IMG/VR virus record: IMGVR_UViG_2595698548_000001
Location: 194,140 to 258,139 of that record
Source: a virus
Taxonomy: Duplodnaviria; Heunggongvirae; Uroviricota; Caudoviricetes
Reading direction: 5' to 3' (one strand)
Length of the DNA: 64,000 bases
Numbering within the stretch: position 1 is the first letter of the stretch; every line of letters begins with the position of its first letter. A model generated the notes under the pieces. It did no database searches and was not told where the DNA came from. It saw only the letters and a list, made by a program, of their open reading frames with translations. A program made the position numbers and the translations under genes. This document shows, piece by piece, positions 4,603-36,686 of the stretch.

Positions 4603-5124
4603 ATGACAGGCTTGACAAGAGTTCCTCTGAAAATGATCGGTGCCTCAGGGCAGCCCGGCGATGACGTTCGTTTCGACGGACGCGATGTCGCTGTGGTGCC
4701 CAGCACCGAGGACACGAACGACTACGGGCTCACCAGCGGTACGTATGACTCCATCGCTGGACGCCTGACCCTGGTGCTGCGCAACGGCGCCCGCCTCGAA
4801 CTCGACGGGTTCATCACCACTGGCGATATCGGCGTAGGCCCCGCTGGTCCGACAGGCCCCGCAGGCCGCGATGGTCGCGATGGCTTGAACGGCGTAGACG
4901 GCGAGAAGGGCGCCACTGGTTGCCAAGGCCCGGCCGGTCCTCCTGGTCGTCAAGGTCCTCGCGGTGAGCAAGGCATCCCAGGCCCCACGGGCCCCACAGG
5001 CGCTACCGGCCCAACAGGCCCGGCCGGGGAAGACGGCGTTCCGCAAATCTGGATTCAAACAGAAGACCCGGTCATCAAATCCGCAGATCACATAGTCCCC
5101 GGTGCATTGTGGGTGAAGCCGTAA
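4603..5124 (+). CDS. collagen-like fibre protein (same N-terminal family)
   Basis: N-terminus [12 protein letters not shown]..., G-X-Y repeat block, C-terminal ..ALWVKP. RBS AAGGTAAGGTGA upstream. Confidence 0.8.
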
Positions 5125-8100: not shown

Positions 8101-8790
8101 GATCACCCGGCTTGGGAAGGGTTGAGTTGTAAGTCGATCCCAGCTGGCGGTAGTGAAGGTGCCATTCGCATCAAGCAAGTGCGCAGTGATTACAGCCCGA
8201 TTTCAGGTACTGTTACCTTCGCGCCTGGTGAAACGTCCAAGGAAGTGTGTGCGCCGATCATCGGCAACGACACGCAGGATGGTGACCGTACCATCAACAT
8301 GAACATCAGCAATGCGTCCAAGGGAAACATCACAGTGCCCACAGGTACTGGGACGATCATCGACGACGATAGTGCGCTGTGCCGGCAAAATCCGCAGGGC
8401 GTAGTGTATGAAAGAGCTGGTGGTGGAGATGGTGCTTACCTGATGCACGTTCAGCCTGATTACAACTGTGCGGCAGGCAACACGAAGTACCTGATGATGG
8501 CGAACTTGACGTTCCCGTACACGGGCCCGTACGTTATCACCATGACGTCCGACGATGACTTCGAGCTGTACATCGACTGTAAGAAGGTTGCGTCTGGTCC
8601 GATCGGTACTCGGCAGTACACCGTGAACATCAACGCAGGTACACGCAACGTCATCCTTCGATACTTGAACGTGCCAAACTGTACGCCTGGTTACGCTGGC
8701 TTTACCGCCCGCTACAACAACCTGATGGTGTACTCGACGCGCGCTGCTGATTGGAAGGGTCAAGCCAATAGCATTGGAGAAATCGAGTAA
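5137..8790 (+). CDS. giant multidomain adhesin-like fibre protein (Calx-beta x2, PA14-like, GATase1/ThuA-like, 3 Cys-bounded beta repeats)
   Basis: RBS GGAGTGA. Domain order: ~56-aa N-terminal domain, Gly/Asp low-complexity linker, three ~100-aa repeats bounded by Cys (..HYQMWNQPDKMEVFN.. / ..RYQMWQIPDKLDVYQ..), a Calx-beta-like motif (VTVDYATGGGNA), a GATase1/ThuA-like segment (..GGGLFIVTDHD..), a second Calx-beta-like segment (..TGTGTIIDDD), and a PA14-like C-terminus (..YTGPYVITMTSDDDFELYIDCKKV..). Confidence 0.8.
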   Translation: MSRLRIRDAKNVKWIDICQSEWRVRNPANTGWIRITPAQGIKARHGSEYYWLDIDCLAEEGTEDCGQDEYGGTPDGKGENGTGPGKPSTGGGDGSGGGGDGGGGDGGGNGGDNGSNNGGSGDGGGIDNGPDSPSFNDGDSGSGNGGSGWQEDAPYPPGFDLPDSDGDGAGDKGDCIYRPGLNTCETKQPIVVRPDMDCGTKRPGSWDCPFECPDSVSGSGAGISEFYINMGTASGNIKFPWIASAGASFDIYYRGKRVATTSGQRKGTGALTFVFNPVNNDPMLFVRVRSTYKTNTWTLQIKCVGDDDDDGTINNPRPCHGTFEVKKEGGQGTYEFYHNLGPTAGLTDIHYQMWNQPDKMEVFNHAGVLIASTGGYVAGEAHLKFQHTPGGSNMVRVRITARDPGTSWIYLITCPGEDGSEDNPRECSDTSAVKSGGAGVTDTFIDMGSTAGKVGIRYQMWQIPDKLDVYQEGTLVATTGGPVTGDHWLYFDYDPSRGQKIQVRVTGSGATSWSFLHTCPGDEDPNISVNSPSVREGAAGESPQLCWTITMDKPQSQPVTVDYATGGGNANPVAAQGRILASDQFNNPFIAVVDQANFGKVAFDGGFPKFYNSTYVAPQPPPTGAQVFNTWWRTAGAEFYTSPSGIPSGSEANAWAYSAGSGNISSTVNSANIISFISPTAYDSYTFEATLSSSAADDDMIGLVAAYARVGSDNYQIIASRQRGGLNAFGSNWSLALVKNNSVVKVLASNAVGGTGNWNGTRTRVRVQRDCNQINVWCSAYGSETISESTLLQADLTSEDLAVFGGAATRWGFTAQSQENATFSSIFVSGIGLPPAFTYLKNIALWSRKPGNSKALILCDSATVNQYNLGTAGMAFGVGMPETLRSVGFDVTMRYLPDMGNKITAADLADYGFLVVLSTDHTGVNHATGTSAAVVANWVKNGGGLFIVTDHDVFQATANALAAPYNIEFYASVDRSPVSVGQIIASHGDHPAWEGLSCKSIPAGGSEGAIRIKQVRSDYSPISGTVTFAPGETSKEVCAPIIGNDTQDGDRTINMNISNASKGNITVPTGTGTIIDDDSALCRQNPQGVVYERAGGGDGAYLMHVQPDYNCAAGNTKYLMMANLTFPYTGPYVITMTSDDDFELYIDCKKVASGPIGTRQYTVNINAGTRNVILRYLNVPNCTPGYAGFTARYNNLMVYSTRAADWKGQANSIGEIE

Positions 8791-27158: not shown

Positions 27159-29058
27159 GCTCCTTCCAAAGCCGATTAAAACCCTGCGCGACGGGTATGT
27201 CGTATTGTTCAACGGCAAAATGATCGCGGACAGCGAACTGTACACTGAGTCCGGACAAAAACTCAGCGATGCCAACTATCCGATGCCGAAGCTGACTACC
27301 ACAGGAACTGTCGTCATTAGCGAGCTGTCCTACAAGGAACCTTCCGGAGATTCTCGCAATTCGTATGTGCAGACCACGTTCGTTGCAGACAACGGGCGTG
27401 TGGCCGAAGCCTGTAAACAACTTAACGACACGGGTACGAACTGGCGCGAGTTTCTGAGCGGCGAGGATCGCCACTGTTTCTATGTCTTCGGCATGGACAG
27501 TCCATTTCCTGCTGTATACACTGATACCAAAGGCAGCCAAGCTGGACGTATTAACGCACGCCACCAATCTTGTGCCCTCGATGTAACGGCCGAGACAACT
27601 TCGCGCGTGCTTGAGCCAAATCAGGTCATCAACTACGGAACCTCGACCAGTGCGCAATCTCCAAGTACCCCAGGTGCGTCCTACCTTGGTATGAGTCGCA
27701 TCTTAGATGAATCCGACACTCGGTACCTGAGTCTAGTGGTGCAATTGAACGGTACTATGTCGGCATACGGTTCCTCGACATATTGCCCGACGTTGCAGAC
27801 AGTACGCAAGGATTACTCCGTGCGCGACGCTGGGTATAACGCGACTACGGCTCCGTGTATTCCACTGTGGCACGATACTACGGACAAAGTGTTCTTTGCT
27901 TGGGAATTGTCGAATAGCCCGACAGCGTACGGGTTGGCAGGTGCAATTATTCGACCAATCGCTCTCCACTATAGTTCCGACATGGTGGCGACTCGCGTAC
28001 AAGCTGGCTACACCGTGACATTGGACAGCTTCGTTAGCTCAACCATATCTGGATTCACCTCCAACAAGCCGTGGCGCACGCTACCAATCATTCGCGCTCT
28101 CAAGAAGGCCGATGGTCTCCTGACCGCGTTCATTCCGAATGTTCAGGGTATTGCTGGAACTGTTCAGACAAACCTCGTGGGCAGTGTTTCTCTGGACCGT
28201 GTCGAGTATAACTACGTCACGAAGACCTTTGGTTCCCGTATCCAGATGAACGTCGTTGATCCAGATACTGGCTTGACGCCCACCTGGGGCGAGAACATGG
28301 TTGTCGTCCGCGACTCCAACTGGGCGAACGCGAAGATGAACACTGGGGATAACTACCCTGCGCACTTCCAGTTCTCCTTCATGCACGAGGTAGATAACGA
28401 GACCTACGTCGTCATCCTTGTGACGGGCAACGGCATTCCCAGCCGCAACCGCAACAACAACAATTTCCAGTATCCGACGAATACCGTGCAGTACACGTTG
28501 CGCTTGGATAAGGCAGACAAGACGAAAGCCTATCTGGTTGCCCGTGAAAATCTGGATGGCTTCTTTGGCACGCAGCGTTCGCTCTACTCGTTCGCGGGTA
28601 CTCAAGATCACAGCAGCCTGTATTGCATTTGCGACAATGACGTGGTGCGCCTCGTGTTCGATCAGACGCAATTGAAGTACGTCCTGTCCGACACTGTGAT
28701 CGACGTGGATGCTGTTAGCCTGCTGGTCAAGGACAACGGCGACGTGTGGTTGATGGATCAGATGCAGCGCGTGTACCAGATGCGCCAAAGCAACGCTGAT
28801 CTGGTGCGCCTGCGCTTCGGCCAGGTGAATGACCGCTTCGTCGAGGCTCCGTATGACGTCCAGCTATTCGTCAGTGCGGCTAATTTCATGGGAGAGCTTG
28901 GTGCTAAACCCATTGAGCTGGTAATCGACGGACCTGCCGTGTTCAAAGCGAACAACGGCAAGAAACTCAACATCACCACGTCCGCAGCAGATGAGCTGGC
29001 TTTGCTCATCACTGTCACCGGATACGGTGAGATTTACGTGACACCCAGAGGATTGTGA
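27151..29058 (+). CDS. large structural protein (fibre/baseplate), possibly a distant member of the paralog family
   Basis: ATG at 27151 follows GAGGT. The track start at 27109 lies inside the previous gene. Confidence 0.65.
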   Translation: MRKLLPKPIKTLRDGYVVLFNGKMIADSELYTESGQKLSDANYPMPKLTTTGTVVISELSYKEPSGDSRNSYVQTTFVADNGRVAEACKQLNDTGTNWREFLSGEDRHCFYVFGMDSPFPAVYTDTKGSQAGRINARHQSCALDVTAETTSRVLEPNQVINYGTSTSAQSPSTPGASYLGMSRILDESDTRYLSLVVQLNGTMSAYGSSTYCPTLQTVRKDYSVRDAGYNATTAPCIPLWHDTTDKVFFAWELSNSPTAYGLAGAIIRPIALHYSSDMVATRVQAGYTVTLDSFVSSTISGFTSNKPWRTLPIIRALKKADGLLTAFIPNVQGIAGTVQTNLVGSVSLDRVEYNYVTKTFGSRIQMNVVDPDTGLTPTWGENMVVVRDSNWANAKMNTGDNYPAHFQFSFMHEVDNETYVVILVTGNGIPSRNRNNNNFQYPTNTVQYTLRLDKADKTKAYLVARENLDGFFGTQRSLYSFAGTQDHSSLYCICDNDVVRLVFDQTQLKYVLSDTVIDVDAVSLLVKDNGDVWLMDQMQRVYQMRQSNADLVRLRFGQVNDRFVEAPYDVQLFVSAANFMGELGAKPIELVIDGPAVFKANNGKKLNITTSAADELALLITVTGYGEIYVTPRGL

Positions 29059-29065
29059 TTCAAAG

Positions 29066-29081
29066 GGCACAAGGACGTGCC
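29066..29081 (+). promoter_or_regulatory. conserved post-stop stem-loop, copy 1 (GGCAC-AAGGAC-GTGCC)
   Basis: It starts 7 nt after the TGA of the 27151 gene. The same element recurs after the next two giant genes. Confidence 0.5.
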
Positions 29082-29099
29082 TACAACTGAGACCCAACC

Positions 29100-29771
29100 A
29101 TGTTCAAAATACCAAGCATTTCGCCTTGGCCAGGTGACCGACCGGTAGAAAGCGAGTACACGATTCTCAACGCGCAGGAGGGCGTCAACGGCATCTACCG
29201 AGTCTCAGGACCTGACGGTGAGGAGTTTGATGCCTACTGCGACATGACAACCGACGGCGGCCATTGGATTCTCATTGCCAGATGGGCCGCGTCTCCGAAC
29301 AAGACGATTACATGGGGACAGGTTATCGTCAAAGACGCCTCACTGAACACTACGACCAATAGCGCTACTCTGTACCCTGTGATCCCCACAGGTGTCCGCA
29401 ACGTGGCCAAGGAAGTGTTGTTCAAAAGTGCGGCTTCTGGCTGGGTTAGCCGATACGGCCAGTGGTTGAAATTCACCACTACGGATGATCCTGCCCTTGT
29501 CATCACTTCGACTGGCATTGATGCAATGCGTGGTAGTGATCGTGCGATTGTGAAGATGCACGGTGAGAGTGCAGGCTGGGGAGGGAACACGTCGATGACC
29601 AACAACTTCTCGCTCTGGACACAATGGGGTAACGGCGGCCCATGTGGTGGTGCCGGCGTCTGCGGTTCTCAGAAGATTTGCCCAGTAATTAGAGCCAACT
29701 ACAACTACAGTTGCCATTTCGATTTCTCCTCCGTGAAGCAACTGTTTATCAGAAGTCGTATTCCTGAATAA
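29100..29771 (+). CDS. fibrinogen-related domain (FReD)-like fibre/lectin protein
   Basis: The segment ..NGIYRVSGPDGEEFDAYCDMTTDGGHWILIARW.. closely matches the FReD A-subdomain consensus (..GIY.l.P.......vYCDM.t.GGGWTviQrR). The N-terminus MFKIPSISPWPG resembles those of the next two genes. Confidence 0.65.
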   Translation: MFKIPSISPWPGDRPVESEYTILNAQEGVNGIYRVSGPDGEEFDAYCDMTTDGGHWILIARWAASPNKTITWGQVIVKDASLNTTTNSATLYPVIPTGVRNVAKEVLFKSAASGWVSRYGQWLKFTTTDDPALVITSTGIDAMRGSDRAIVKMHGESAGWGGNTSMTNNFSLWTQWGNGGPCGGAGVCGSQKICPVIRANYNYSCHFDFSSVKQLFIRSRIPE

Positions 29772-29781
29772 AGAGGCAATC

Positions 29782-32700
29782 ATGCTTAGCCTGATTCCAA
29801 GACTAGCTCCATGGCCGCTAGTACGCGGAGACCTACGGAGTTATCCGACCCTACTAAGCAAGACTGCGTTTTCCGCAGTGCCGACAACTGGCCTGTCTGG
29901 CAGCATAGTCCAGCTAAGTCACTTGACGTACAAGCCCGAGACTGGCAAGCTATTCGTTCCACTGCTGCACAGTGATCGGACTGGACGGCTGGCTGTTTAT
30001 GACGTAGCCGGGAACTCGCTCACGCAAGCAGTGTCTTTTGCCGCAATGGGAGGCACAGGAGTGCTTCGTCCAGGCGCCCACCACACACTGAGCAGAACTG
30101 CCAGCGGGGCAGCATCCGGTAAAGTACCTGCAGTGGTCACATGGGGCACAACATCGACACCCTCTGGTATCGGTGTAGGTCTTTTCAACGAGACAGCCTC
30201 CGCCATCGAAGGGTTTACGACGTCCGCCGCGAGCATCGTCAGCAACCAGTCAAACTTGAACTTGCAAGCGTCAATCATCATGAATGCCGCTGGTGACGTA
30301 GGGCTTGTGCAGTACATCGACGGACCAGACAGCACTCGCTATCTGAAATACAGGAAGGTCGTATACGATCAAGCCCAGGGCAAGCTAGTCGTCGGCACTG
30401 GCGCCCAAGAATTTGTAGGTCAGCAGCAGCCTGCAGTCGCCCGATACTACAAGGATTCCTTGTTTGTTGTGTGCGGGCTTGCCAGCTCAGGCAAAGCATT
30501 TGCGCAACTGCTCGATGTGTCTGGTGATGCTCCAGTACTGGTAGACTCCGCACCTGCGCTTAAGGCGAGTTCTCTAGCCTGGGGAAAAGCATCTATCGAT
30601 GTCGTTGGGGACAATTTGGTCATCACGTATCTGGATGCAACTGGTGACCTTAACGCGGAGCTGTTCGCACTCTCCTCAACTTCCATTACGCGCAAGTCCA
30701 CACAACCGCTGGGAGGCTTCACGACCTCCTCAGGTGTGCGCGATAGTATCGTTCTAGGTGACACTGTATTCGCTCTGATCGTAACTGGCAACTCAGTAGA
30801 CGTGGCGAAAACAACGATCGGTGCGCAAGGCGTAACGCGCTTCACCGTTGACCGTAACGTCATGACGTTGGATGCCACGTATACGCAGGCGTACATGGCA
30901 AAGATCAGCGACACTCGATTGCTGTTCGTCAAAGCTGGCACCACCGGGGCGATGCAATACCAGTTTGTCGATTACGTGTGGCGTGTCGATCTGACTCCGT
31001 CCAAGGTGCTGGCCCAGTATCGGTTCTACGACGGTGAAGCCATCAACGAAGTCGGCGAACGCTTCGCTCTGCTGGGCTCTGGCGCTACAGTCGGCAATGG
31101 CCGCCTAAACACCACAACCAACACGACTTCGCGCATCGAGCAAGACCAGGTCTATTTCGGGCCTGACGATGATCTGACGATAGAGGCGATTGTAAAAGCA
31201 ACGTCTTCCGGCAGTAACGGGTACTCTCCGATCTGCCAGTGGAACGTAGGCGGCTCCAACAATAACTCCTGGGCCATGTCTGTCGTTAGCGGGCTCCTTC
31301 GCTTCTCGTGGTCTTCCAGTGGGTCTGCATCATCAACATACCTAACGTCAAACACGCCCGTCCCAACTGGCATCGAAACACACGTCGCGGTTGTTCGGAA
31401 AAACGGCGTGTTCCGACTGTACGTGGCTGGGCAGCAGCAAAACGAAACTTCGGTCGACGCTACCGCTAACGCATTGAACACCAGACCAGTGTCCACGAGC
31501 TGGTCAGACACGACCGGTTGGTTGAACGGGTCACGAGGCAACATTCGGATCAGCCGCGAAGCGCTGTATGACGGAGATTTCCAACCTCCGACAGAACTGC
31601 CGACGATCACTCGTCCGACATACAGCGAACAAGATCAGGCTGCGTGTGTTTTCCAATTGGATTTGCGCCGCGACAATCTGTTGGACGAGGTTACGGACAA
31701 CCAAGTCACGTTCGTCAACGGTACCGCCCTGACGAATGGACGCATCGTCACGGTAAACAATACGACTTCGCAGTACACCTGCCAGAGCAAGAAGTTCGGT
31801 GAGGGTGATTTCACGGCTGAGCTGATGATCAACCTGCAAGCTGTCAGCGCAACGTACGGTGCTGTGATCATGGGCAACTGGCGTGCAGGCGGTGTAGCCA
31901 GTGACGAGAACCGTTGGTGCATCATCCTGGACAGTAATCGCAACATTGGCTTCAACATGGCCAGATCGGCCGACGCCAACGACTTCGCTTGGATGATGTC
32001 CTCGACGCCTGTTCCATTGAACGTGGACTGCCACATTGTAGCGGAGCGCGTAAATGGAGTCGTGACTCTCTACCTGAACGGCAGCCAGGTGGCGCAATCC
32101 AACGAGACTGATTTCAACTTCCCAATCCGCGGAGGTGAAGCCGGTTGGAAGGTGCACAGTATCAGTTCTCAGGTTGCGTACACCGTGGGAATGCGCTGCT
32201 GGAATCTGCGCATCATGGACAAAGCCTACTACAATGGCGATGTCAAGCGCGAGAATGAATTCCCAGCGCTGTCTGTGAAAGAGTACGTCATAGTCAACGG
32301 CGCCTATCTGCACCCGGACTTCTCCCTGCAGGGTGGCGCTACTCAAACGGAAGTTGGCGTTGATATGACCGCTGGCAAATACATCTTGGGTACAGGATCG
32401 CCCAAGTATGTGTTCTACCGAGGCGATTTCACAGTCGAAGCAACGGTCACACCACGTAGCTTGGTCTACGGTACTGGTGCAGGTTCCGGTTCTGCTATAG
32501 TCCCTCTGTGGGCGTGCCATACCTGGGCTGCTCCTGGGCAGCCAGTGAACTGGGAACTATTCTTGAACTTAGGAACGAACCAGATTGCGTTCGGCACTTC
32601 CCATTCTGACTCTACGCTCAGTCGAACAATGCCTTACACATTCACTCTTGGCCAGCGCATAAACTTCAAGGTGGTGCGCCGCCGCAGTCAGATGTATGCC

Positions 32701-32871
32701 TTTGTGGACGACACGCTCGTAGGTGTGACCGACATGCCCTACAACATCGGATATGACATAACACAGCCTCCGTTCATCGGACGCCGACGTGGTGGCGGTA
32801 GTGGTGAAGTGAATTGGTGGAACGACGTTCTTCTGGAGAAATTCATTATCACCAAGCGCGCCAAGATGTGA
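29782..32871 (+). CDS. giant fibre protein with three LamG/ConA-like lectin repeats
   Basis: N-terminus MLSLIPRLAPWPL. Three ~190-aa repeats (..GDFTAELMINL...ENRWCIILD...VVTLYLNG.. and similar), each ending in ..ALYDGDFQPP / AYYNGDVKRENEFP. Confidence 0.75.
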   Translation: MLSLIPRLAPWPLVRGDLRSYPTLLSKTAFSAVPTTGLSGSIVQLSHLTYKPETGKLFVPLLHSDRTGRLAVYDVAGNSLTQAVSFAAMGGTGVLRPGAHHTLSRTASGAASGKVPAVVTWGTTSTPSGIGVGLFNETASAIEGFTTSAASIVSNQSNLNLQASIIMNAAGDVGLVQYIDGPDSTRYLKYRKVVYDQAQGKLVVGTGAQEFVGQQQPAVARYYKDSLFVVCGLASSGKAFAQLLDVSGDAPVLVDSAPALKASSLAWGKASIDVVGDNLVITYLDATGDLNAELFALSSTSITRKSTQPLGGFTTSSGVRDSIVLGDTVFALIVTGNSVDVAKTTIGAQGVTRFTVDRNVMTLDATYTQAYMAKISDTRLLFVKAGTTGAMQYQFVDYVWRVDLTPSKVLAQYRFYDGEAINEVGERFALLGSGATVGNGRLNTTTNTTSRIEQDQVYFGPDDDLTIEAIVKATSSGSNGYSPICQWNVGGSNNNSWAMSVVSGLLRFSWSSSGSASSTYLTSNTPVPTGIETHVAVVRKNGVFRLYVAGQQQNETSVDATANALNTRPVSTSWSDTTGWLNGSRGNIRISREALYDGDFQPPTELPTITRPTYSEQDQAACVFQLDLRRDNLLDEVTDNQVTFVNGTALTNGRIVTVNNTTSQYTCQSKKFGEGDFTAELMINLQAVSATYGAVIMGNWRAGGVASDENRWCIILDSNRNIGFNMARSADANDFAWMMSSTPVPLNVDCHIVAERVNGVVTLYLNGSQVAQSNETDFNFPIRGGEAGWKVHSISSQVAYTVGMRCWNLRIMDKAYYNGDVKRENEFPALSVKEYVIVNGAYLHPDFSLQGGATQTEVGVDMTAGKYILGTGSPKYVFYRGDFTVEATVTPRSLVYGTGAGSGSAIVPLWACHTWAAPGQPVNWELFLNLGTNQIAFGTSHSDSTLSRTMPYTFTLGQRINFKVVRRRSQMYAFVDDTLVGVTDMPYNIGYDITQPPFIGRRRGGGSGEVNWWNDVLLEKFIITKRAKM

Positions 32872-32878
32872 TCTATAC

Positions 32879-32894
32879 GGCACAGGGACGTGCC
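32879..32894 (+). promoter_or_regulatory. conserved post-stop stem-loop, copy 2 (GGCAC-AGGGAC-GTGCC)
   Basis: It starts 7 nt after the TGA of the 29782 gene. Confidence 0.5.
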
Positions 32895-32925
32895 ATTTCT
32901 ATGTATTCAATTACGGGAGCATCCT

Positions 32926-35900
32926 ATGCTGAGTCTGATTCCGAGACTAGCACCTTGGCCTTTGCCGAGGGCATCCTCAGAGGTAAGTGACCTTTGGGTG
33001 CAATATCGATTTCTTGGCACTGAAGCCATTGATGAAGTTACGGATGCTGTAGCCACGCTCTACGGAACCGCCACTTTGGCTGACGGTAAACTCGTGACTA
33101 ACCCAGCGAGTCCTGCCAACTACGCGGCCATGAACAACATCATCTTCGACGCCAACGAAGATTTCAACATAAGCCTGAACGTGAATATGCCGTTCAGCAA
33201 CAGCCGTCCATACAACACTATTCTTGGTGTGTACACTTCGACCGCAGGTCCACGTGCTTGGGCTCTGGGTCGCATCGGTAACGACACTAACCCGTCGAAG
33301 CTCCACTTCGCCATGGTCTCAGGAGGTGTCAAATACGACTTCTACGGTCCCGTGCTGAACGCCGACACTGATTACCACATCGAAGTGTCGCGCACTCAGA
33401 ACGTGCTGTACATCTTCGTAAACGGCAACTTGGAGCTGGCTACGCCTTTTGCCTTGGGCAACGATCAGGCTTCTTTGCCCAGGATGCGTACCGACGTTAT
33501 CCTCGCCGAGGGCCAGACGGCGACGCTCACGCACCACGGCGGCGGCTATAAGTGGGGCCTTCAGATTTTCAAAGGTAAGGGCGGTCATACGTCCAACTTT
33601 ACGCCCGAAGCACCTGTCGAATACTCGCGCCCGTACTACACGGCAGACGTAGCACAAGACATCAAGCTGCAACTTGGCATGCGCCGCGGTACTAAGGCGT
33701 GCGAAGCCTCTGGTGCCCAGTTAGCCTTGAACGGCACAGCGACCGTAGGTAAGAACGCTCGCTTATCTTTGACGAACGTAACGACCTCTTACGCGAGTAT
33801 CCCGGTTGCCGCATTTGGAGAAGCCGACTTTACCATTGAGTTCATGTGTAACCTGAGCGCTGTGCATTCGACATATGGTAACCATTTCGGGCACATGTTT
33901 AGCTCGGTGAGCGCCAGCGAGGATAACCGCTGGATCGTTTGGGTGTCGCCTTCGGGTCGTCTGGGCTTTTCGATGAGCTTATCCGCGAACGCGAATGACA
34001 CTGTAGGCACAGGTTCCGTAGAGGGTGCCTTCAAGTTCAACCGTGACAATCACATTGTTGTCCAGCGTAAGGATGGCGTCATCAAGCTCTACTTGAACAA
34101 ACAAGAAGTGGCACAAATGGCACAAGCTGCACCCATCAGGGGCGGCGCTGGTGTGTTCCGCACACAGTCGCTCAACGGTGCAACCTCGTGTGCCGGCCAG
34201 CTGTGGAACATTCGGATTGCTGACCGGGCACTCTACTCGGAACAGGTCAAGACCAAGCCAACATTCCCGCAGTTCACCAAAGAATACGACCCCACGCTGT
34301 TCATGCAGTACACGTTCAGCTACGACGAAGCGATCAACGAAGTTACGGAGACGTTCGCGGCTCTCTCCGGCAACGCGGCCGTATCAAATGGCAGGTTGTC
34401 CACTGGGTCTTCGGCGAGCGACAACATGTCTACGCCTGCCACGTTGATCGAACCGAACGAAGACTTCACGTTGGAGGTGATGTTCAACTGCACCACGCAT
34501 AACGTGAACATGCCGATTCTCGGTATCGTGGGTGGGAGTAACACAGGCGTATCCAAGAACGCATGGTACTTGCACTACGACGTTCCTGCTGCGGCATTTC
34601 GCTTCATGGTGTATGACGGTACTGGCGCCAGTGACATGGTGCAGTTCGCACGCCCCAACATCTTCAATACTGACACGCACATCGCAATAGCCCGTAAAGG
34701 CGGTGTGATGACGCTGTTCATCGCGGGTCAGCCAGTTGCCAGCACACCAAGCATCAAAGGTAACGTGCCGACTTCTGTGCAGATGGGCACCACGTTCTCC
34801 TCAACGTACATGAACGGGACGCGAACAAACTTCCGTCTGGTGCGCGGACGCGCGCTGTACGATTCCGCGTTCGAGCCTCCGGTAACGCTGCCTGTTGTAG
34901 GTCGTCCGACGTACACCCAGCAAGAAGCCGCTGCGACCAAAGCGCAGATCGATCTGCGCCGAGACAGTGCGCGAAACGATGCCAACGGACGCTCCGTTCA
35001 AGTTTATAGCTCGGCACGTCACGTTAGGGGCCGCATTCTTCATGCTGCCGCAACGTCGTCGTTCTACTACGCACCATGCGAGCCATTCGGAGCTGGTGAT
35101 TTCACCATAGAGCTGGACTTTAACCTGACATCGATCAACGGCACGTACGGAGGTGCACTGGCCGGACAGTGGGTGCGAGGCAACGTAGCCTCAGAAGATA
35201 ACTGCTGGCTGATCTATGTAGGACCAACCAGACTCATCCAGTTCGCCTGGGCCCGCAGTGCCGCAGCGAACGATTTCGACTTCATCGCGTCTGCGGCAGG
35301 CGTGTTTGATTTCAGCGCTGACTACCGTTTGGTTGTGGAGCGTATCGGGACCACGCTGACGATCTACCTGAACAATGTCCAGGTTGCACAGGGTACGTGC
35401 GCGATCCCGTTGAGAACAAACGCTCCCCATTACGTGCGCAGTAACAGCTCGGCAAACCTATATGCGTTCGGCGGTTCTGTGTGGAATCTGCGCATTTCGG
35501 ATCGTGCAGTGTACAACGGCAATGTAACGCGAGTCCCACTGTTCCCGAAAATGCCGAAAGCCGCCGAGTACACGGACCAGAGTCTGTTGAACGACATTGT
35601 TGTGCAGTGCGATATGAACGAAGGGAACGCACGCAACGCCAAGACAGGTGAAGTCATTACGTTCTCAGGTACGGGTGCGGCTATTCGTGAGCGCTTGGTG
35701 ACGACACTTGCCAACACTTCGCGCTGGTATATCCCGTGCGGTCCGTTCAGTGCTGGCGATTTCACAATCGAGTTCGATTTGAACCTGCTGAGTTCCACTG
35801 GGGCTTCGTCTCGTCCGATCTTCGGTCAGTTCAGAGGTGACGTAGGACCAAACTCGTGGGTTTTCTACACCACGTCATCTGGTAACTTGGCGTTCCAGTG

Positions 35901-36621
35901 TTTGGGTGTAGATGCGTCATCGCTGAGTATCGACTCTCTCAATGGGCCTATCGAGAAGCGCACGCTGACAGCAGGTAAAGAACATCACGTGGTTGTCGAG
36001 CGCAAGGCTGGCGTTGTGACCATGTACATCGATGGTGTTGTCATCGGCAGCGGAGCTTTCACTGCACAGCTTGTGGACATGTCGGCGTATCCGTACATCA
36101 CGAACCTGTACGATCTGTCCACGGCGAAGTATTGTGCCAGTGAGATTGGCAACGTGCGTATTGCCAAGCGTGCCCTGTACAATGGTGTGATCACCAAAGC
36201 AAGGCTGCCGCTCGTCCCGAACCAGAAGCCTTCGTTGACTGCGAACATCGGTTCGGCGATTGGTACTCTGTCTGGTGCGTGCCAGAACTTGTATTACGGT
36301 GGCGTGCAAAGCTCGTTGGGTGCATTCAGCCATACGCTGTTCCGTGACATCCGCGATCCGCAGAACGTCAAGACTGTTCGCCTTGTTGCGCTCGCTCTCG
36401 ACAGGACGTACACCGTGCTGGCGTGGCGAGAAGTGGATATGCCGCCGACCGCGGATATGCCGCAGTTCACCAACTCGTTGAAGATCGGGAACGCCGCACC
36501 TCTGCTGATCTCCAATTCGTCCGGCGCTAGTGTTGCAAATGGCGTCACGGGGCGGTATTGGTCTGGCAACCCGTTTGGTCCGTTGACACACGGAACTGCC
36601 ATTCCATTCGAGTTTGTGTAG
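32926..36621 (+). CDS. giant fibre protein with five LamG/ConA-like lectin repeats
   Basis: ATG at 32926 follows GGGAG. The N-terminus MLSLIPRLAPWPLPRAS is near-identical to that of the 29782 gene. Five repeats of the form ..[EG]DFT[IL]E..N....DN.W.......G.L.F......A........H.V..R..GV..LY.N... Confidence 0.75.
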   Translation: MLSLIPRLAPWPLPRASSEVSDLWVQYRFLGTEAIDEVTDAVATLYGTATLADGKLVTNPASPANYAAMNNIIFDANEDFNISLNVNMPFSNSRPYNTILGVYTSTAGPRAWALGRIGNDTNPSKLHFAMVSGGVKYDFYGPVLNADTDYHIEVSRTQNVLYIFVNGNLELATPFALGNDQASLPRMRTDVILAEGQTATLTHHGGGYKWGLQIFKGKGGHTSNFTPEAPVEYSRPYYTADVAQDIKLQLGMRRGTKACEASGAQLALNGTATVGKNARLSLTNVTTSYASIPVAAFGEADFTIEFMCNLSAVHSTYGNHFGHMFSSVSASEDNRWIVWVSPSGRLGFSMSLSANANDTVGTGSVEGAFKFNRDNHIVVQRKDGVIKLYLNKQEVAQMAQAAPIRGGAGVFRTQSLNGATSCAGQLWNIRIADRALYSEQVKTKPTFPQFTKEYDPTLFMQYTFSYDEAINEVTETFAALSGNAAVSNGRLSTGSSASDNMSTPATLIEPNEDFTLEVMFNCTTHNVNMPILGIVGGSNTGVSKNAWYLHYDVPAAAFRFMVYDGTGASDMVQFARPNIFNTDTHIAIARKGGVMTLFIAGQPVASTPSIKGNVPTSVQMGTTFSSTYMNGTRTNFRLVRGRALYDSAFEPPVTLPVVGRPTYTQQEAAATKAQIDLRRDSARNDANGRSVQVYSSARHVRGRILHAAATSSFYYAPCEPFGAGDFTIELDFNLTSINGTYGGALAGQWVRGNVASEDNCWLIYVGPTRLIQFAWARSAAANDFDFIASAAGVFDFSADYRLVVERIGTTLTIYLNNVQVAQGTCAIPLRTNAPHYVRSNSSANLYAFGGSVWNLRISDRAVYNGNVTRVPLFPKMPKAAEYTDQSLLNDIVVQCDMNEGNARNAKTGEVITFSGTGAAIRERLVTTLANTSRWYIPCGPFSAGDFTIEFDLNLLSSTGASSRPIFGQFRGDVGPNSWVFYTTSSGNLAFQCLGVDASSLSIDSLNGPIEKRTLTAGKEHHVVVERKAGVVTMYIDGVVIGSGAFTAQLVDMSAYPYITNLYDLSTAKYCASEIGNVRIAKRALYNGVITKARLPLVPNQKPSLTANIGSAIGTLSGACQNLYYGGVQSSLGAFSHTLFRDIRDPQNVKTVRLVALALDRTYTVLAWREVDMPPTADMPQFTNSLKIGNAAPLLISNSSGASVANGVTGRYWSGNPFGPLTHGTAIPFEFV

Positions 36622-36625
36622 GACA

Positions 36626-36645
36626 ACAGCACAAGGACGTGCTGT
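36626..36645 (+). promoter_or_regulatory. conserved post-stop stem-loop, copy 3 (ACAGCAC-AAGGAC-GTGCTGT)
   Basis: It starts 4 nt after the TAG of the 32926 gene. The closing pair is A-T where copies 1 and 2 have G-C, a compensatory change. Confidence 0.5.
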
Positions 36646-36686
36646 ACGGCAGCGTAATTTACACGCATCAAAGAGGAGAATCCACA

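Follow-up and report, generated by a model that had tools for sequence, protein, structure and literature searches.

Stop-proximal ANGGAN-loop hairpins in the late fibre cluster of phage PaBG as candidate sites of host RsmA/RsmN

Genes and hairpins of the late fibre cluster

The window, by which we mean the whole 64-kb stretch of DNA of the Pseudomonas jumbo phage PaBG that was analysed, contains three small hairpins that are confined to one hypervariable late (fibre) cluster, where they lie about 3.7 kb apart within an operon (Table 1). Among the surrounding genes, gp215 has been reported as a virion protein, gp214 is conserved in PaBG relatives, and gp217 has a weak ribosome-binding site without GGA. 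The genome paper of PaBG makes no mention of hairpins, terminators or regulation of these genes. A first-pass annotation of the sequence had placed the hairpins behind three consecutive giant fibre genes, a description that does not hold, as gp218 has no known function and the 223-residue gp217, with no hairpin after it, intervenes.

Table 1. Features around the three hairpins, in window coordinates
Feature	Position	Strand	Remarks
gp218, 635 aa	27151..29058	+	No known function; stop precedes copy 1
Hairpin copy 1, (G)GGCAC-AAGGAC-GTGCC(T)	29065..29082	+	Core 29066-29081, loop 29071-29076
gp217, 223 aa	29100..29771	+	Weak fibrinogen-C match; N-terminus MFKIPSISPWP; first cistron after copy 1
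gp216, 1029 aa	29782..32871	+	Laminin_G_3 lectin-like adhesin/fibre; stop precedes copy 2
Hairpin copy 2, GGCAC-AGGGAC-GTGCC	32879..32894	+	Loop 32884-32889
GGGAG Shine-Dalgarno of gp215	32915..32919	+	Second GGA, 30 nt from copy 2 loop GGA
gp215, 1231 aa	32926..36621	+	Laminin_G_3 x4, gp216 paralogue; between copies 2 and 3
Hairpin copy 3, ACAGCAC-AAGGAC-GTGCTGT	36626..36645	+	Loop 36633-36638
GTAATTTA, promoter-like motif	36654..36661	+	Between copy 3 and gp214
GAGGAG Shine-Dalgarno of gp214	36673..36678	+	Second GGA, 40 nt from copy 3 loop GGA
gp214, 230 aa	36687..37379	+	No family match; cistron after copy 3, then lysis genes

Copy 1 follows the gp218 stop (TGA, 29056-29058) after 7 nt and precedes the gp217 ATG by 18 nt, copy 2 follows the gp216 stop (TGA, 32869-32871) after 7 nt and precedes the gp215 ATG by 31 nt, and copy 3 follows the gp215 stop (TAG, 36619-36621) after 4 nt and precedes the gp214 ATG by 41 nt; the sequences and coordinates given in the first-pass annotation are exact, and so is its distance of 4-7 nt from the stop. 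Each copy has an ANGGAN hexaloop directly on the stem, with a closing C-G pair and an A-U pair beneath it, and the minimum-free-energy folds place the GGA in the apical loop in all three, as they do in the 16 aligned hairpins described below. Folded in isolation, the hairpins reach -8.6 to -10.7 kcal/mol (z = -2.5 to -3.4). Their flanking sequences do not resemble one another, so simple duplication of a segment is not their origin.

The element is rare in its genome. Within the 258,139 bp of PaBG, the 14-mer GCAC-ARGGAC-GTGC has exactly three occurrences, always on the coding strand, and the relaxed pattern RGCAC-N6-GTGCY has three matches in the window against 0.57 expected, which is above the level of chance. 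A covariance model finds only the three copies in the PaBG genome at E<0.01; its next-best match (17 bits) is an ordinary, canonical terminator that is bidirectional.

Stop-codon read-through, which the 7-nt spacing had suggested, was rejected: the gp216 stop alone shares its frame with the following gene, and the read-through frames of the other two stops close after 29 and 11 codons. An intrinsic terminator was likewise rejected, in agreement with the first-pass annotation, as no T-run follows copies 1 and 3 and the canonical terminators of PaBG look different; a permissive terminator scan just accepts copy 2, but it gives such matches as often in shuffled sequences. Sites of RNase III need a duplex of some 20 bp or more. 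The stems here have 5-7 bp, and folds of 60-84 nt show no longer helix, so that the RNase III processing role suggested earlier is not supported; nor is the one suggested for RNase E. The motif GTAATTTA is also present between hairpin and gene at the homologues of copy 3, and it may mark the start of a separate gp214 transcript without the hairpin. Transcripts from this motif would lack the hairpin site, a point that counts against the involvement of RsmA/RsmN discussed below.

Conservation, covariation and distribution

The relatives of PaBG are metagenomic contigs, obtained via a large protein database and contig look-ups only. The GenBank phage collection contains no close PaBG relative, searches of IMG/VR for homologues of gp218 and gp217 found none, and a metagenome scan that used homologues of gp214 yielded a single short contig. 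The relatives keep the hairpin at the corresponding junctions (in L006 together with a gp218 homologue of 84% identity) on stems that are wholly different, including GAGAGC/GCTCTC, AGGAC/GTCCT, GGCTC/GAGCC, and TCAC/GTGA. The hairpin is restricted to spacers of about 35 nt or more, with none where genes abut. It lies 4-13 nt from the stop as against 11-69 nt from the next start, which bears out the earlier claim that the stop and not the start is its anchor. That the distance to the upstream stop is kept more tightly than that to the downstream start, the hairpin being 41-69 nt from the ATG in several long spacers, is at the same time a point against control of the following gene by a bound host protein.

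The aligned set consists of 16 hairpins from PaBG and about nine related phages. All 16 share A1, G4, and A5 of the loop and a closing C-G pair, and G3 is present in 15, the exception being the loop AATGAC. Positions N2 (mostly a purine, also C or T, as in ACGGAC and ATGGAA) and X6 are variable, with X6 never a G, and the penultimate stem pair is A-U in 13 hairpins and C-G, G-C, or U-A in one each. The stem alignment has 93.8% of its cells paired and double changes at four of five pairs, with none of 500 shuffles as good, pairing statistics that are somewhat inflated by the loop-anchored scan used to locate the relatives' hairpins. In relative L019 the fifth pair of the copy 3 homologue is reversed from A-T to T-A. 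Since the covariation is genuine, the element is, on this comparative evidence, a selected strand-specific RNA hairpin, and the compensatory changes at four of five stem pairs confirm the earlier view that it is not a relic of duplication. The G-C to A-T change in copy 3, from which that view had started, is indeed a swap that preserves pairing; it concerns the outermost (fifth) pair and not the loop-closing one, which is the invariant C-G.

Beyond these relatives, exact copies of the 16-mers have a wide distribution in IMG/VR, where GGCACARGGAYGTGCC is found at at least 119 loci. In these scans, with the stem fixed and ORF calls crude, 36 of 70 contexts have GGCACARGGAYGTGCC 4-12 nt past the end of an ORF, compared with 1 of 32 for a control with the same stem and a scrambled loop, both among the matches listed. 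In unrelated phage contigs the 16-mer typically stands 7-9 nt after a stop, just before the next ribosome-binding site, and IMG/VR copies are usually 11-23 nt ahead of the next ATG, again among the matches listed. It recurs in lambdoid, T7-like and other phage types, also beside non-fibre genes. The T7-like phages of P. putida, an independent lineage, keep C-ATGGAA-G on a different stem at one junction.

A generic 3' hairpin with an incidental loop, acting as an exonuclease block, a weak factor-dependent terminator or attenuator, or an insulator against run-on, is a distinctly unlikely explanation of this pattern. The tight position, 4-13 nt after the stop, would suit it, as would certain IMG/VR copies that form the tip of canonical U-tract terminators and the lambdoid phage TL-2011b (E. 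coli), where the hairpin is followed by TTTAAATAATT. A purely structural element would, however, be conserved in the opposite way from what is seen, since here the loop and closing pair are kept and the stems replaced, and the scrambled-loop control has almost none of the stop-proximal placement. In addition, copies 1 and 3 lack a U-tract, PaBG has ordinary U-tract terminators elsewhere, and the stems of certain relatives, only 3-4 bp long with -3.6 to -5 kcal/mol, are too weak to withstand exonucleases. These short stems also weaken the 3' stability element that had been among the roles put forward. In the L017/L021 lineage the same post-stop position is occupied by a hairpin with an unrelated loop, GGGCC-GCTTGTATAG-GGCCC, which speaks for the generic explanation and counts against loop recognition by RsmA/RsmN; some function at this place may therefore need a hairpin alone.

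At the DNA level, the copies could be regarded as direct repeats of 14-16 bp that serve as crossover points for adding, deleting, or swapping genes of the fibre cassette. The gene content between hairpins does vary among relatives, and the homology of PaBG and L006 (76%) ends exactly at the 3' end of hairpin 1, after which a different gene follows. Two other rearrangements, however, used other junctions, namely the L008/L009 indel, at a microhomology (GTGCCTGC) situated 22 nt beyond hairpin 2, and the L019 deletion, which falls within the gp217 and gp215 coding sequences. Stem divergence destroys the homology that recombination needs while the loop is retained, the PaBG annotation lists neither an integrase nor an invertase nor a reverse transcriptase, and the element flanks non-fibre genes in other phages. 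We consider shuffling very improbable as the function of the hairpins, and the recombination boundary proposed earlier would be at most a by-product.

Other DNA-level classes were also rejected. A palindromic operator for a dimeric DNA-binding protein would keep its half-sites and leave the centre free, the opposite of the conserved centre and replaced arms seen here, where moreover all copies lie on one strand. Integron attC sites are imperfect palindromes of 57-141 nt with conserved core sites and a cognate recombinase; the present element has 16-20 nt, and the annotation of the whole record contains neither an integrase nor an invertase, which led us to reject attC and other site-specific recombination sites. 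A DGR target-recognition hairpin, which would stand behind a variable region and go with a reverse transcriptase and a template/variable repeat pair, was discounted (no reverse transcriptase annotated; C-terminus of gp215, ...PFEFV, conserved among relatives), as was an N4-type single-stranded-DNA promoter.

The CsrA/RsmA recognition code and the proposed ligand

The invariant part of the hairpin is, as far as sequence and predicted fold can tell, the published high-affinity code of CsrA/RsmA/RsmE. For RsmE this code is an "ANGGAX hexa-loop directly on top of a stem", in which N and X vary and are looped out, Thr5 contacts the closing C-G pair, and A1 is contacted as well (PMC4005645). The SELEX consensus, RUACARGGAUGU, has conserved ACA, GGA, and GU with 6-nt loops and AC/GU pairing, and its ligands mostly have stems of 3-4 bp (PMC7652899), a shortness shared by certain PaBG relatives. 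The PaBG core CACAAGGACGUG agrees with this consensus at 10 of 12 positions, the ANGGAX hexaloop is placed on the stem in all three PaBG copies and in 15 of the 16 aligned hairpins, and the C-G closing pair that the code requires is present in 16 of 16. The loop, which the first-pass annotation had noted as Shine-Dalgarno-like, is the key feature of the element. In P. aeruginosa, CLIP-seq has given "ANGGA in apical loops" as the RsmA/N motif. The CLIP-seq peaks are enriched at start codons and not at stop codons, an observation that goes against stop-proximal docking.

A scan of 4227 Rfam families found RsmV, an RsmA sponge of P. aeruginosa, as the sole family matching copies 1 and 2, with 10.7-13.6 bits against a gathering score of 100; no family exceeded its gathering score for the hairpins, and matches to "freshwater-2" and mir-3116 were at chance level. 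An Rsm sponge sRNA (RsmV/Y/Z, clan CL00106) was rejected as the identity of the element, for one RsmV hairpin aligns, far below gathering, and the copies are separate sites kilobases apart (3.7 kb). No description of a stop-proximal C-ANGGAN-G hairpin was found in Rfam or the searchable literature, and literature searches on CsrA-type sites in phage mRNAs and on the sequence itself gave nothing relevant.

The same loop could mimic a Shine-Dalgarno (SD) sequence, its AAGGA pairing with the 3' end of 16S rRNA and retaining 30S subunits or post-termination ribosomes at a standby, re-initiation, or decoy site in spacers whose length prevents direct translational coupling. The mostly purine N2 and the restriction to spacers of about 35 nt or longer, never abutting genes, agree with this possibility, and in IMG/VR copies with X=G the GGAGG of the loop acts as the SD of the gene, whose ATG comes 0-5 nt past the stem. 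Within the PaBG-type hairpins, on the other hand, X6 is never G in 16, though G would lengthen the pairing with the anti-SD, and N2 = C or T (ACGGAC, ATGGAA) leaves just three pairable bases. The invariant closing C-G and A1 are irrelevant to such pairing, yet they are contacted by RsmE (PMC4005645), and each of the downstream genes carries an SD of its own closer to the ATG. SD mimicry is, on balance, unlikely.

It is quite improbable that the loop is read by an RNA-binding protein of the phage itself, in the manner of a late translational repressor like T4 RegA. Confinement of the element to a single hypervariable late cluster would fit this, as would the majority of PaBG genes having no known function. 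Opposed to it are the recurrence of the 16-mer in lambdoid, T7-like, and other phages without an obvious common protein, its presence in a bacterial leader known to bind CsrA, and the lack of a candidate protein in PaBG. A tblastn search of PaBG with approximate RsmA/CsrA queries returned noise (best E 0.4), and PaBG is absent from the list of csrA+ phages. As PaBG has no recognisable CsrA and its host P. aeruginosa carries RsmA and RsmN, the likeliest ligand would be the host RsmA or RsmN dimer. The "binding site for a late regulator" of the first-pass annotation comes closest among its four roles, with the difference that the evidence favours host CsrA/RsmA over a phage protein.

That the hairpins are docking sites at which host RsmA/RsmN tunes translation of the next cistron has, in our judgement, about an even chance of being correct. 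One face of the dimer would be tethered to the hairpin on the late fibre-cluster mRNA, and the other would reach the GGA-bearing SD of the next cistron, 10-52 nt off, so as to lower or gate de novo initiation there. The sequences show that the element exists, is confined to this cluster, is conserved with covariation, agrees with the recognition code and is widely distributed, whereas RsmA/RsmN binding and the sense and target of any regulation are inferred, the mechanism by analogy with the glgC and hag leaders. The loop GGA and the SD GGA are 10-52 nt apart at the junctions of PaBG and its relatives, and a second GGA is found at the SD at 10 of 14 tabulated junctions, copies 2 and 3 included and copy 1 not, although GGA is common at such sites anyway. 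The lack of a second GGA ahead of gp217 at copy 1 is an observation against such bridging. At 4-13 nt (mode 7-9 nt) from the upstream stop, the stem would begin near the leading edge of a ribosome whose A site is occupied by the stop codon. This would bring the hairpin as near to the upstream gene as possible while escaping unwinding by terminating ribosomes. The output of gp217/gp216, gp215, and gp214 might in this way be tied to free RsmA, through the Gac/Rsm state or through titration by late mRNA.

CsrA/RsmA is a master lifestyle switch that acts on motility, biofilm, surface polysaccharides, and secretion. If lytic phages do have a high-affinity operator of this switch within structural operons, host physiology would bear on the stoichiometry of phage proteins and perhaps on the receptor-binding repertoire, and abundant phage mRNA could perturb the CsrA/RsmA regulon of the host. 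More tentatively, and rather doubtfully, phages of many kinds may place an operator of host CsrA/RsmA 7-9 nt behind the stop ahead of selected cistrons. On this reading, the cistrons selected in PaBG-like jumbo phages would be the exchangeable lectin-type fibre cassettes, and either fibre translation would be gated by the Csr/Gac-Rsm state or the late mRNA would titrate the regulator. Phage and host would then interact at the post-transcriptional level in a widespread way that has gone unrecognised. Because RsmA/N also control O-antigen genes (P. aeruginosa CLIP-seq), PaBG could in this way match the fibre set of its progeny to the surface physiology of the host population. The signature for annotation is a stop codon, 7-9 nt, and a C-ANGGAN-G hairpin. 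The element is small, sharply defined, and mutable, and it occurs in cultured phages (PaBG on PAO1, TL-2011b, T7-like phages of P. putida), so the idea is directly testable.

Comparison with known regulatory hairpins

Phage intercistronic signals that set cistron output or mark modules include the RegA operators of T4 and the PeSL cassettes of T4-type phages. RegA sites are AU-rich, unstructured, and bound by a phage protein, and PeSL combines an early promoter with a stem-loop; unlike the PaBG hairpins, neither has an ANGGAN loop. The known RsmE/RsmA hairpins (the 20-nt RBS of hcnA, RsmZ SL2, RsmV) share with PaBG the ANGGAX hexaloop and the C-G closing pair, with U-A, A-U, or G-C beneath it, and come from the same host genus. 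Between copy 2 and the RsmV hairpin at positions 162-177 of RF04320, GACAC-AGGGAU-GUGUC, there are three differences in 16 positions, of which two are compensatory. Known Rsm hairpins are found in sponge sRNAs with several GGA sites or include the SD itself, whereas those of PaBG are single, on mRNA, and upstream of the SD.

Over 16 nt, copy 1, GGCAC-AAGGAC-GTGCC, has exactly the sequence of the hairpin in the hag (flagellin) leader of the Bacillus subtilis group. The CsrA sites of this leader, as quoted from Yakhnin 2007 in PMC8523840, are BS1 (A51-A55) and BS2 (C75-G82). The AAGGA loop of hag fits BS1 and CAGGGAGG, 24 nt downstream, fits BS2, a mapping inferred from the 24-nt spacing. According to PMC7652899 and PMC8523840, CsrA is tethered there and ribosome binding is blocked. 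The hag hairpin is upstream of the SD as in PaBG, and the hag SD contains a GGA (BS2) 24 nt away. The hag site, however, belongs to the 5' leader of a bacterial mRNA that is monocistronic, in a Gram-positive host. Those of PaBG, a phage with a Gram-negative host, stand between cistrons, 4-7 nt from the preceding stop, and copy 1 lacks the second GGA.

In the E. coli glgC leader the CsrA dimer is tethered to a high-affinity hairpin next to the SD, on its upstream side, and bridges to the SD, over a range of 10-63 nt between the two sites (PMC7652899). The glgC site is in a 5' leader and not in an intercistronic spacer, and stop anchoring is not described there; the 10-52 nt distances of the PaBG type fall within the bridging range of the glgC type.

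Three hairpins in the PaBG fibre cluster

The window (record 194140-258139) is the end of the genome of PaBG (NC_022096.1), a jumbo myovirus of 258,139 bp whose host is P. aeruginosa PAO1. The sequences and coordinates of three hairpins past the stops of gp218, gp216 and gp215 (copies 1, 2 and 3) were exact in the first-pass annotation, which had placed them behind three consecutive giant fibre genes. That description does not hold: gp217 (223 aa, without a 3' hairpin) separates copy 1 from gp216, and gp218 has no assigned function. The adhesins gp216 and gp215 are lectin-like paralogues (Laminin_G_3), gp215 being counted among the virion proteins in the PaBG paper, and the lysis genes come after gp214, which is conserved but has no assigned function. 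In copy 3 the exchange of G-C for A-T is real and affects the outermost common pair of five rather than the one that closes the loop.

The suggested pattern RGCAC-N6-GTGCY occurs three times in the window versus 0.57 expected, and a check for random recurrence located the 14-mer GCACARGGACGTGC only at copies 1-3 in the whole genome assembled from the record. A covariance-model search of PaBG returned E<0.01 for these copies only, the next match being an ordinary U-tract terminator. Their flanks do not align, in agreement with the earlier view that they are not simple duplications, and the isolated hairpins fold at -8.6 to -10.7 kcal/mol (z -2.5 to -3.4). As had been noted, they do not belong to the terminator class; nor are they RNase III processing sites, as had been proposed. 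They belong neither to attC sites nor to DGR hairpins.

Hairpins of the form C-ANGGAN-G with at least 4 pairs (N, loop position 2; the last position, 6, is also written X) number 11 in the PaBG genome, and the eight besides copies 1-3 all lie inside annotated coding sequence; the element is confined to the hypervariable fibre cluster. Two stable intragenic hairpins, in gp241 and gp066, may be chance or internal regulator sites. The gp216 TGA is in frame with the gp215 ATG, with 18 codons and no stop between, and read-through would fuse the two adhesins; this is probably coincidence, because the other two junctions lack such a frame and disallow a read-through fusion.

Hairpins and associated features (unprefixed coordinates are window positions in rows naming PaBG and contig positions in the other rows; Lnnn are retrieved contigs)
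Source	Feature	Coordinates	Context
PaBG copy 1	GGCAC-AAGGAC-GTGCC	29066-29081	7 nt past gp218 TGA
PaBG copy 2	GGCAC-AGGGAC-GTGCC	32879-32894	7 nt past gp216 TGA
PaBG copy 3	ACAGCAC-AAGGAC-GTGCTGT	36626-36645	4 nt past gp215 TAG
L008, L009, L010	(G)GCAC-AAGGAT/ACGGAC-GTGC(T)		after gp218 homologue
L008, L009, L010	CGCAC-AATGAC-GTGCG or TGCAC-AAGGAT-GTGCG		after fibre gene
L019	GCAC-AAGGAC-GTGC and TGCAC-AGGGAC-GTGCA		
L011, L014	TCAC-AAGGAT/AAGGAA-GTGA and GCC-AAGGAC-GGC		
L015	GAGAGC-AAGGAA-GCTCTC		
L016	(G)AGGAC-AAGGAT-GTCCT(T)		
L018	GGCTC-ATGGAA-GAGCC		
L017, L021	GGGCC-GCTTGTATAG-GGCCC	L017 16052-16122; L021 7927-7997	7 nt past last fibre stop
PaBG	GGAAGGC-AAGGAG-GCCTTCC	2698-2717	7 bp, sense strand, inside gp241
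PaBG	CCAGTAC-ATGGAC-GTACTGG	record 36205-36224 (minus strand)	7 bp, sense strand, inside gp066
PaBG	gp216/gp215 junction	32869-32928	
PaBG, L006-L021	M-L-S-L-I-P-R/K-x-x-P-W-P	29100-29140, 29782-29825, 32926-32970	fibre gene N-termini
L015	vestigial ORFs	2879-2949, 8312-8360	spacers
L019	53-aa ORF	886-1118	
L008, L009	cassette indel	L008 13057-15700; L009 13021-13036	
PaBG, L004	GTAATTTA / TAATTTA(Y)	36654-36661; record 114293 (+), 64915 (-), 61823 (-); L004 40703-40713	
L009, L011, L014, L017, L018, L021	GTAATTTA / TAATTTA(Y)		
L126	GGACAC-AAGGAT-GTGTCC, 8 nt, GGCAC-AAGGAC-GTGCC	8650-8690	
L135	two hairpin copies, GCAWGGATGC units	4730-5031	

Conservation and cassette variation in relatives

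No close relative of PaBG was found among GenBank phages or by IMG/VR protein scans; relatives were found through a large protein database and their contigs then fetched. L007 (98.7% identity to PaBG) keeps all three copies. In L006 the gp218 homologue is 84% identical and is followed by TGA, 7 nt, GGCAC-AGGGAC-GTGCC and a different fibre gene, and DNA homology to PaBG runs precisely up to the hairpin's 3' end and no further. This breakpoint favours the recombination boundary that had been among the proposed roles; however, two other natural rearrangements use different junctions and no recombinase is annotated, and as a primary role we consider it very improbable.

The fifth pair is T-A in L019 versus A-T in PaBG, and distant relatives have the same loop on quite different stems. 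Nine of the ten strict matches in 151 kb of relatives lie on the coding strand of the fibre cluster, directly past a stop. In an ungapped alignment of 16 hairpins 93.8% of cells pair and compensatory double changes occur in four of five pairs (shuffles equally good, 0/500), values somewhat inflated since the distant hairpins were found by a loop-anchored scan; their syntenic stop-proximal position was not a selection criterion. The covariation first noted in copy 3 is thereby borne out. The loop-closing pair is C-G in all 16 and loop A1, G4 and A5 are invariant, with G3 in 15 and positions 2 and 6 variable. A mimic of the Shine-Dalgarno (SD) sequence would account for the purine-rich loop but leaves unexplained why C-G and A1 never vary, why position 2 can be C or T and why position 6 is never G, and is unlikely. 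A palindromic DNA operator is ruled out by the asymmetric conserved loop, the fixed closing pair, the swappable stems and the constant location on the mRNA strand. The element is very probably a functional RNA hairpin. Constancy of the loop and its closing pair while stems are exchanged points to a ligand that would read the loop. The ANGGAN hairpin is not universal in PaBG relatives: the L017/L021 lineage carries an unrelated one with no GGA and no U-tract, and with CTGTAATTTATGCC downstream.

Proteins gp215, gp216 and gp217 have in common an N-terminal motif, M-x-x-x-IP-x-x-x-PWP (MFKIPSISPWP in gp217), which recurs in otherwise dissimilar fibre-cluster proteins and is probably a common baseplate-attachment peptide of exchangeable fibres. 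Fibre-cluster spacers of L015 contain short ORFs coding this motif alone (MLARIPRYALLIGT and MLPLIPRFTAA, each followed by a stop), which look like leftovers of lost fibre cassettes. In L019, an activated-sludge contig, an ORF flanked by hairpins 1 and 3 joins residues 1-29 of gp217 to the C-terminal 24 of gp215; this looks like a natural deletion of ~7 kb removing fibre cassettes, with contig coverage low and a chimeric read possible. L008 has an additional fibre gene and a gp217-like gene that are absent from L009, the junction being an 8-9-nt microhomology (GTGCCTGC) 22 nt 3' of hairpin 2. We also noticed the motif GTAATTTA / TAATTTA(Y) on the coding strand 24-45 nt upstream of several ATGs, often directly past a canonical terminator. 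The motif is conserved in front of gp214 homologues and is perhaps a (late?) promoter element of the phage itself, which the phage sigma factor gp118 might read.

Occurrence in other phages

At least 119 loci in IMG/VR contain GGCACARGGAYGTGCC. Among the matches listed, it lies 4-12 nt (mode 7-8) past the end of a same-strand ORF (at least 70 codons) in 36 of 70 distinct contexts, usually with an SD and ATG next, and the stem variant AGCAC...GTGCT added further post-stop cases. With the loop permuted on an unchanged stem (GGCACRAGAGYGTGCC), the control scan found 37 loci, stop-proximal in only 1 of 32 contexts. In these scans stems are fixed by the pattern, ORF calls are crude and the largest (lambdoid) family is over-represented. 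The control speaks against a generic 3' hairpin, as does a loop conserved while stems change, some of them very weak; the anchoring to the stop and the L017/L021 substitute would fit such a hairpin, which we regard as quite unlikely. Among the matches listed, loops with X=A are post-stop in 16 of 37 contexts and those with X=G in only 4 of 24; in these four, GGAGG of the loop serves as the SD. The two X=Y scans pooled comprise, among the matches listed, 64 distinct upstream genes, with the hairpin 7-9 nt past the stop for 28. Where a downstream ORF was called (33 cases), the hairpin precedes its start by 5-23 nt in 21.

Adjoining genes are diverse (anti-repressor, DNA polymerase, exonuclease, HNH endonuclease, spanin, endolysin, tail fibre). 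The hairpin of E. coli phage TL-2011b is 8 nt past a Bro-N gene, and in a P. putida T7-like phage from IMG/VR it lies between internal virion protein and tail fibre. At the same junction the cultured vB_PpuP-SaviPeeda has TAA, 9 nt and ATTGAC-ATGGAA-GTCAAT, sharing C-ANGGAN-G with its IMG/VR relative on a different stem. Raw counts of AGCACAAGGAYGTGCT are inflated by its many coding matches (L098-L297; e.g. L180, L192, L235, L284, L297) that specify the peptide (K/Q)HKDVL, part of a phage protein which is conserved and seems to resemble the N-terminus of Rha/Bro-type regulators. The clustered ANGGAN hairpins of the viral contigs L126 and L135 resemble Rsm/Csr sponge RNAs, possibly phage- or prophage-encoded.

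Correspondence with Csr/Rsm sites and possible role

The conservation pattern is that of the published CsrA/RsmA/RsmE recognition code. The high-affinity site is an ANGGAX hexaloop directly on the stem, with N and X looped out and free and Thr5 contacting the guanosine of the closing C-G (Duss et al., PMC4005645). The SELEX consensus RUACARGGAUGU, in which ACA, GGA and GU are conserved and AC pairs with GU, came from ligands with 6-nt loops and stems mostly of up to 4 bp (PMC7652899); the PaBG core CACAAGGACGUG fits it at 10 of 12 positions. In P. aeruginosa CLIP-seq, the RsmA and RsmN motif is ANGGA in apical loops. Two independent database comparisons are in accord with this. Among 4227 Rfam families only RsmV, a P. 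aeruginosa sponge of RsmA/RsmF, matched copies 1 and 2, through its hairpin GACAC-AgGGAU-GUGUC and with a score far below gathering; the PaBG hairpins do not belong to the families of Rsm sponge RNAs.

A pattern based on the Bacillus flagellin (hag) leader matched 67 genomes, mostly Bacillaceae and Paenibacillaceae. The B. spizizenii leader reads GGCAC-AAGGAC-GTGCC-N12-CAGGGAGG-N9-ATG AGA ATT AAC CAC, and PaBG copy 1 is identical to its 16-mer. Of the CsrA sites BS1 (A51-A55) and BS2 (C75-G82), as Yakhnin 2007 is quoted in PMC8523840, the loop AAGGA fits the first and CAGGGAGG, 24 nt downstream, the second, with the assignment of coordinates inferred from this spacing. A phage RNA-binding protein as ligand is hard to reconcile with an identical 16-mer in unrelated phages and hag, and seems distinctly improbable. 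No CsrA homologue was found in PaBG by tblastn, and a published list of csrA-positive phages does not include PaBG, which makes RsmA or RsmN of the host the candidate ligand. In every testable feature of hairpin sequence and structure the three copies agree with a high-affinity Csr/Rsm site, and binding is predicted.

We give docking of host Csr/Rsm proteins about an even chance of explaining the PaBG hairpins. Docked on the hairpin, RsmA or RsmN would bridge to the GGA in the following SD, in the manner of glgC and hag, and would thereby lower or gate the initiation of gp215 and gp214. For gp217 the effect is less clear, since it is not preceded by a second GGA. The 7-9 nt spacing would be the closest packing to the upstream stop that avoids opening by the terminating ribosome, an argument from ribosome-footprint geometry. 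Several points speak against simple repression: the hairpin keeps a tighter distance to the stop than to the start, in several long spacers it is 41-69 nt away from the ATG, the promoter-like GTAATTTA intervenes between copy 3 and gp214, and the ANGGAN loop is replaced in L017/L021.

The hairpin is selected, strand-specific, carries the CsrA/Rsm code and is common in other phages. No description of stop-proximal CsrA-type hairpins in phage operons was found in Rfam or in the part of the literature covered, and we regard the element as a putative Csr/Rsm site of a known type in an unusual, apparently general viral context. The loop-to-SD distances of 30 nt (gp215) and 40 nt (gp214), and of 10-52 nt across relatives, fall inside the 10-63 nt range for bridging.
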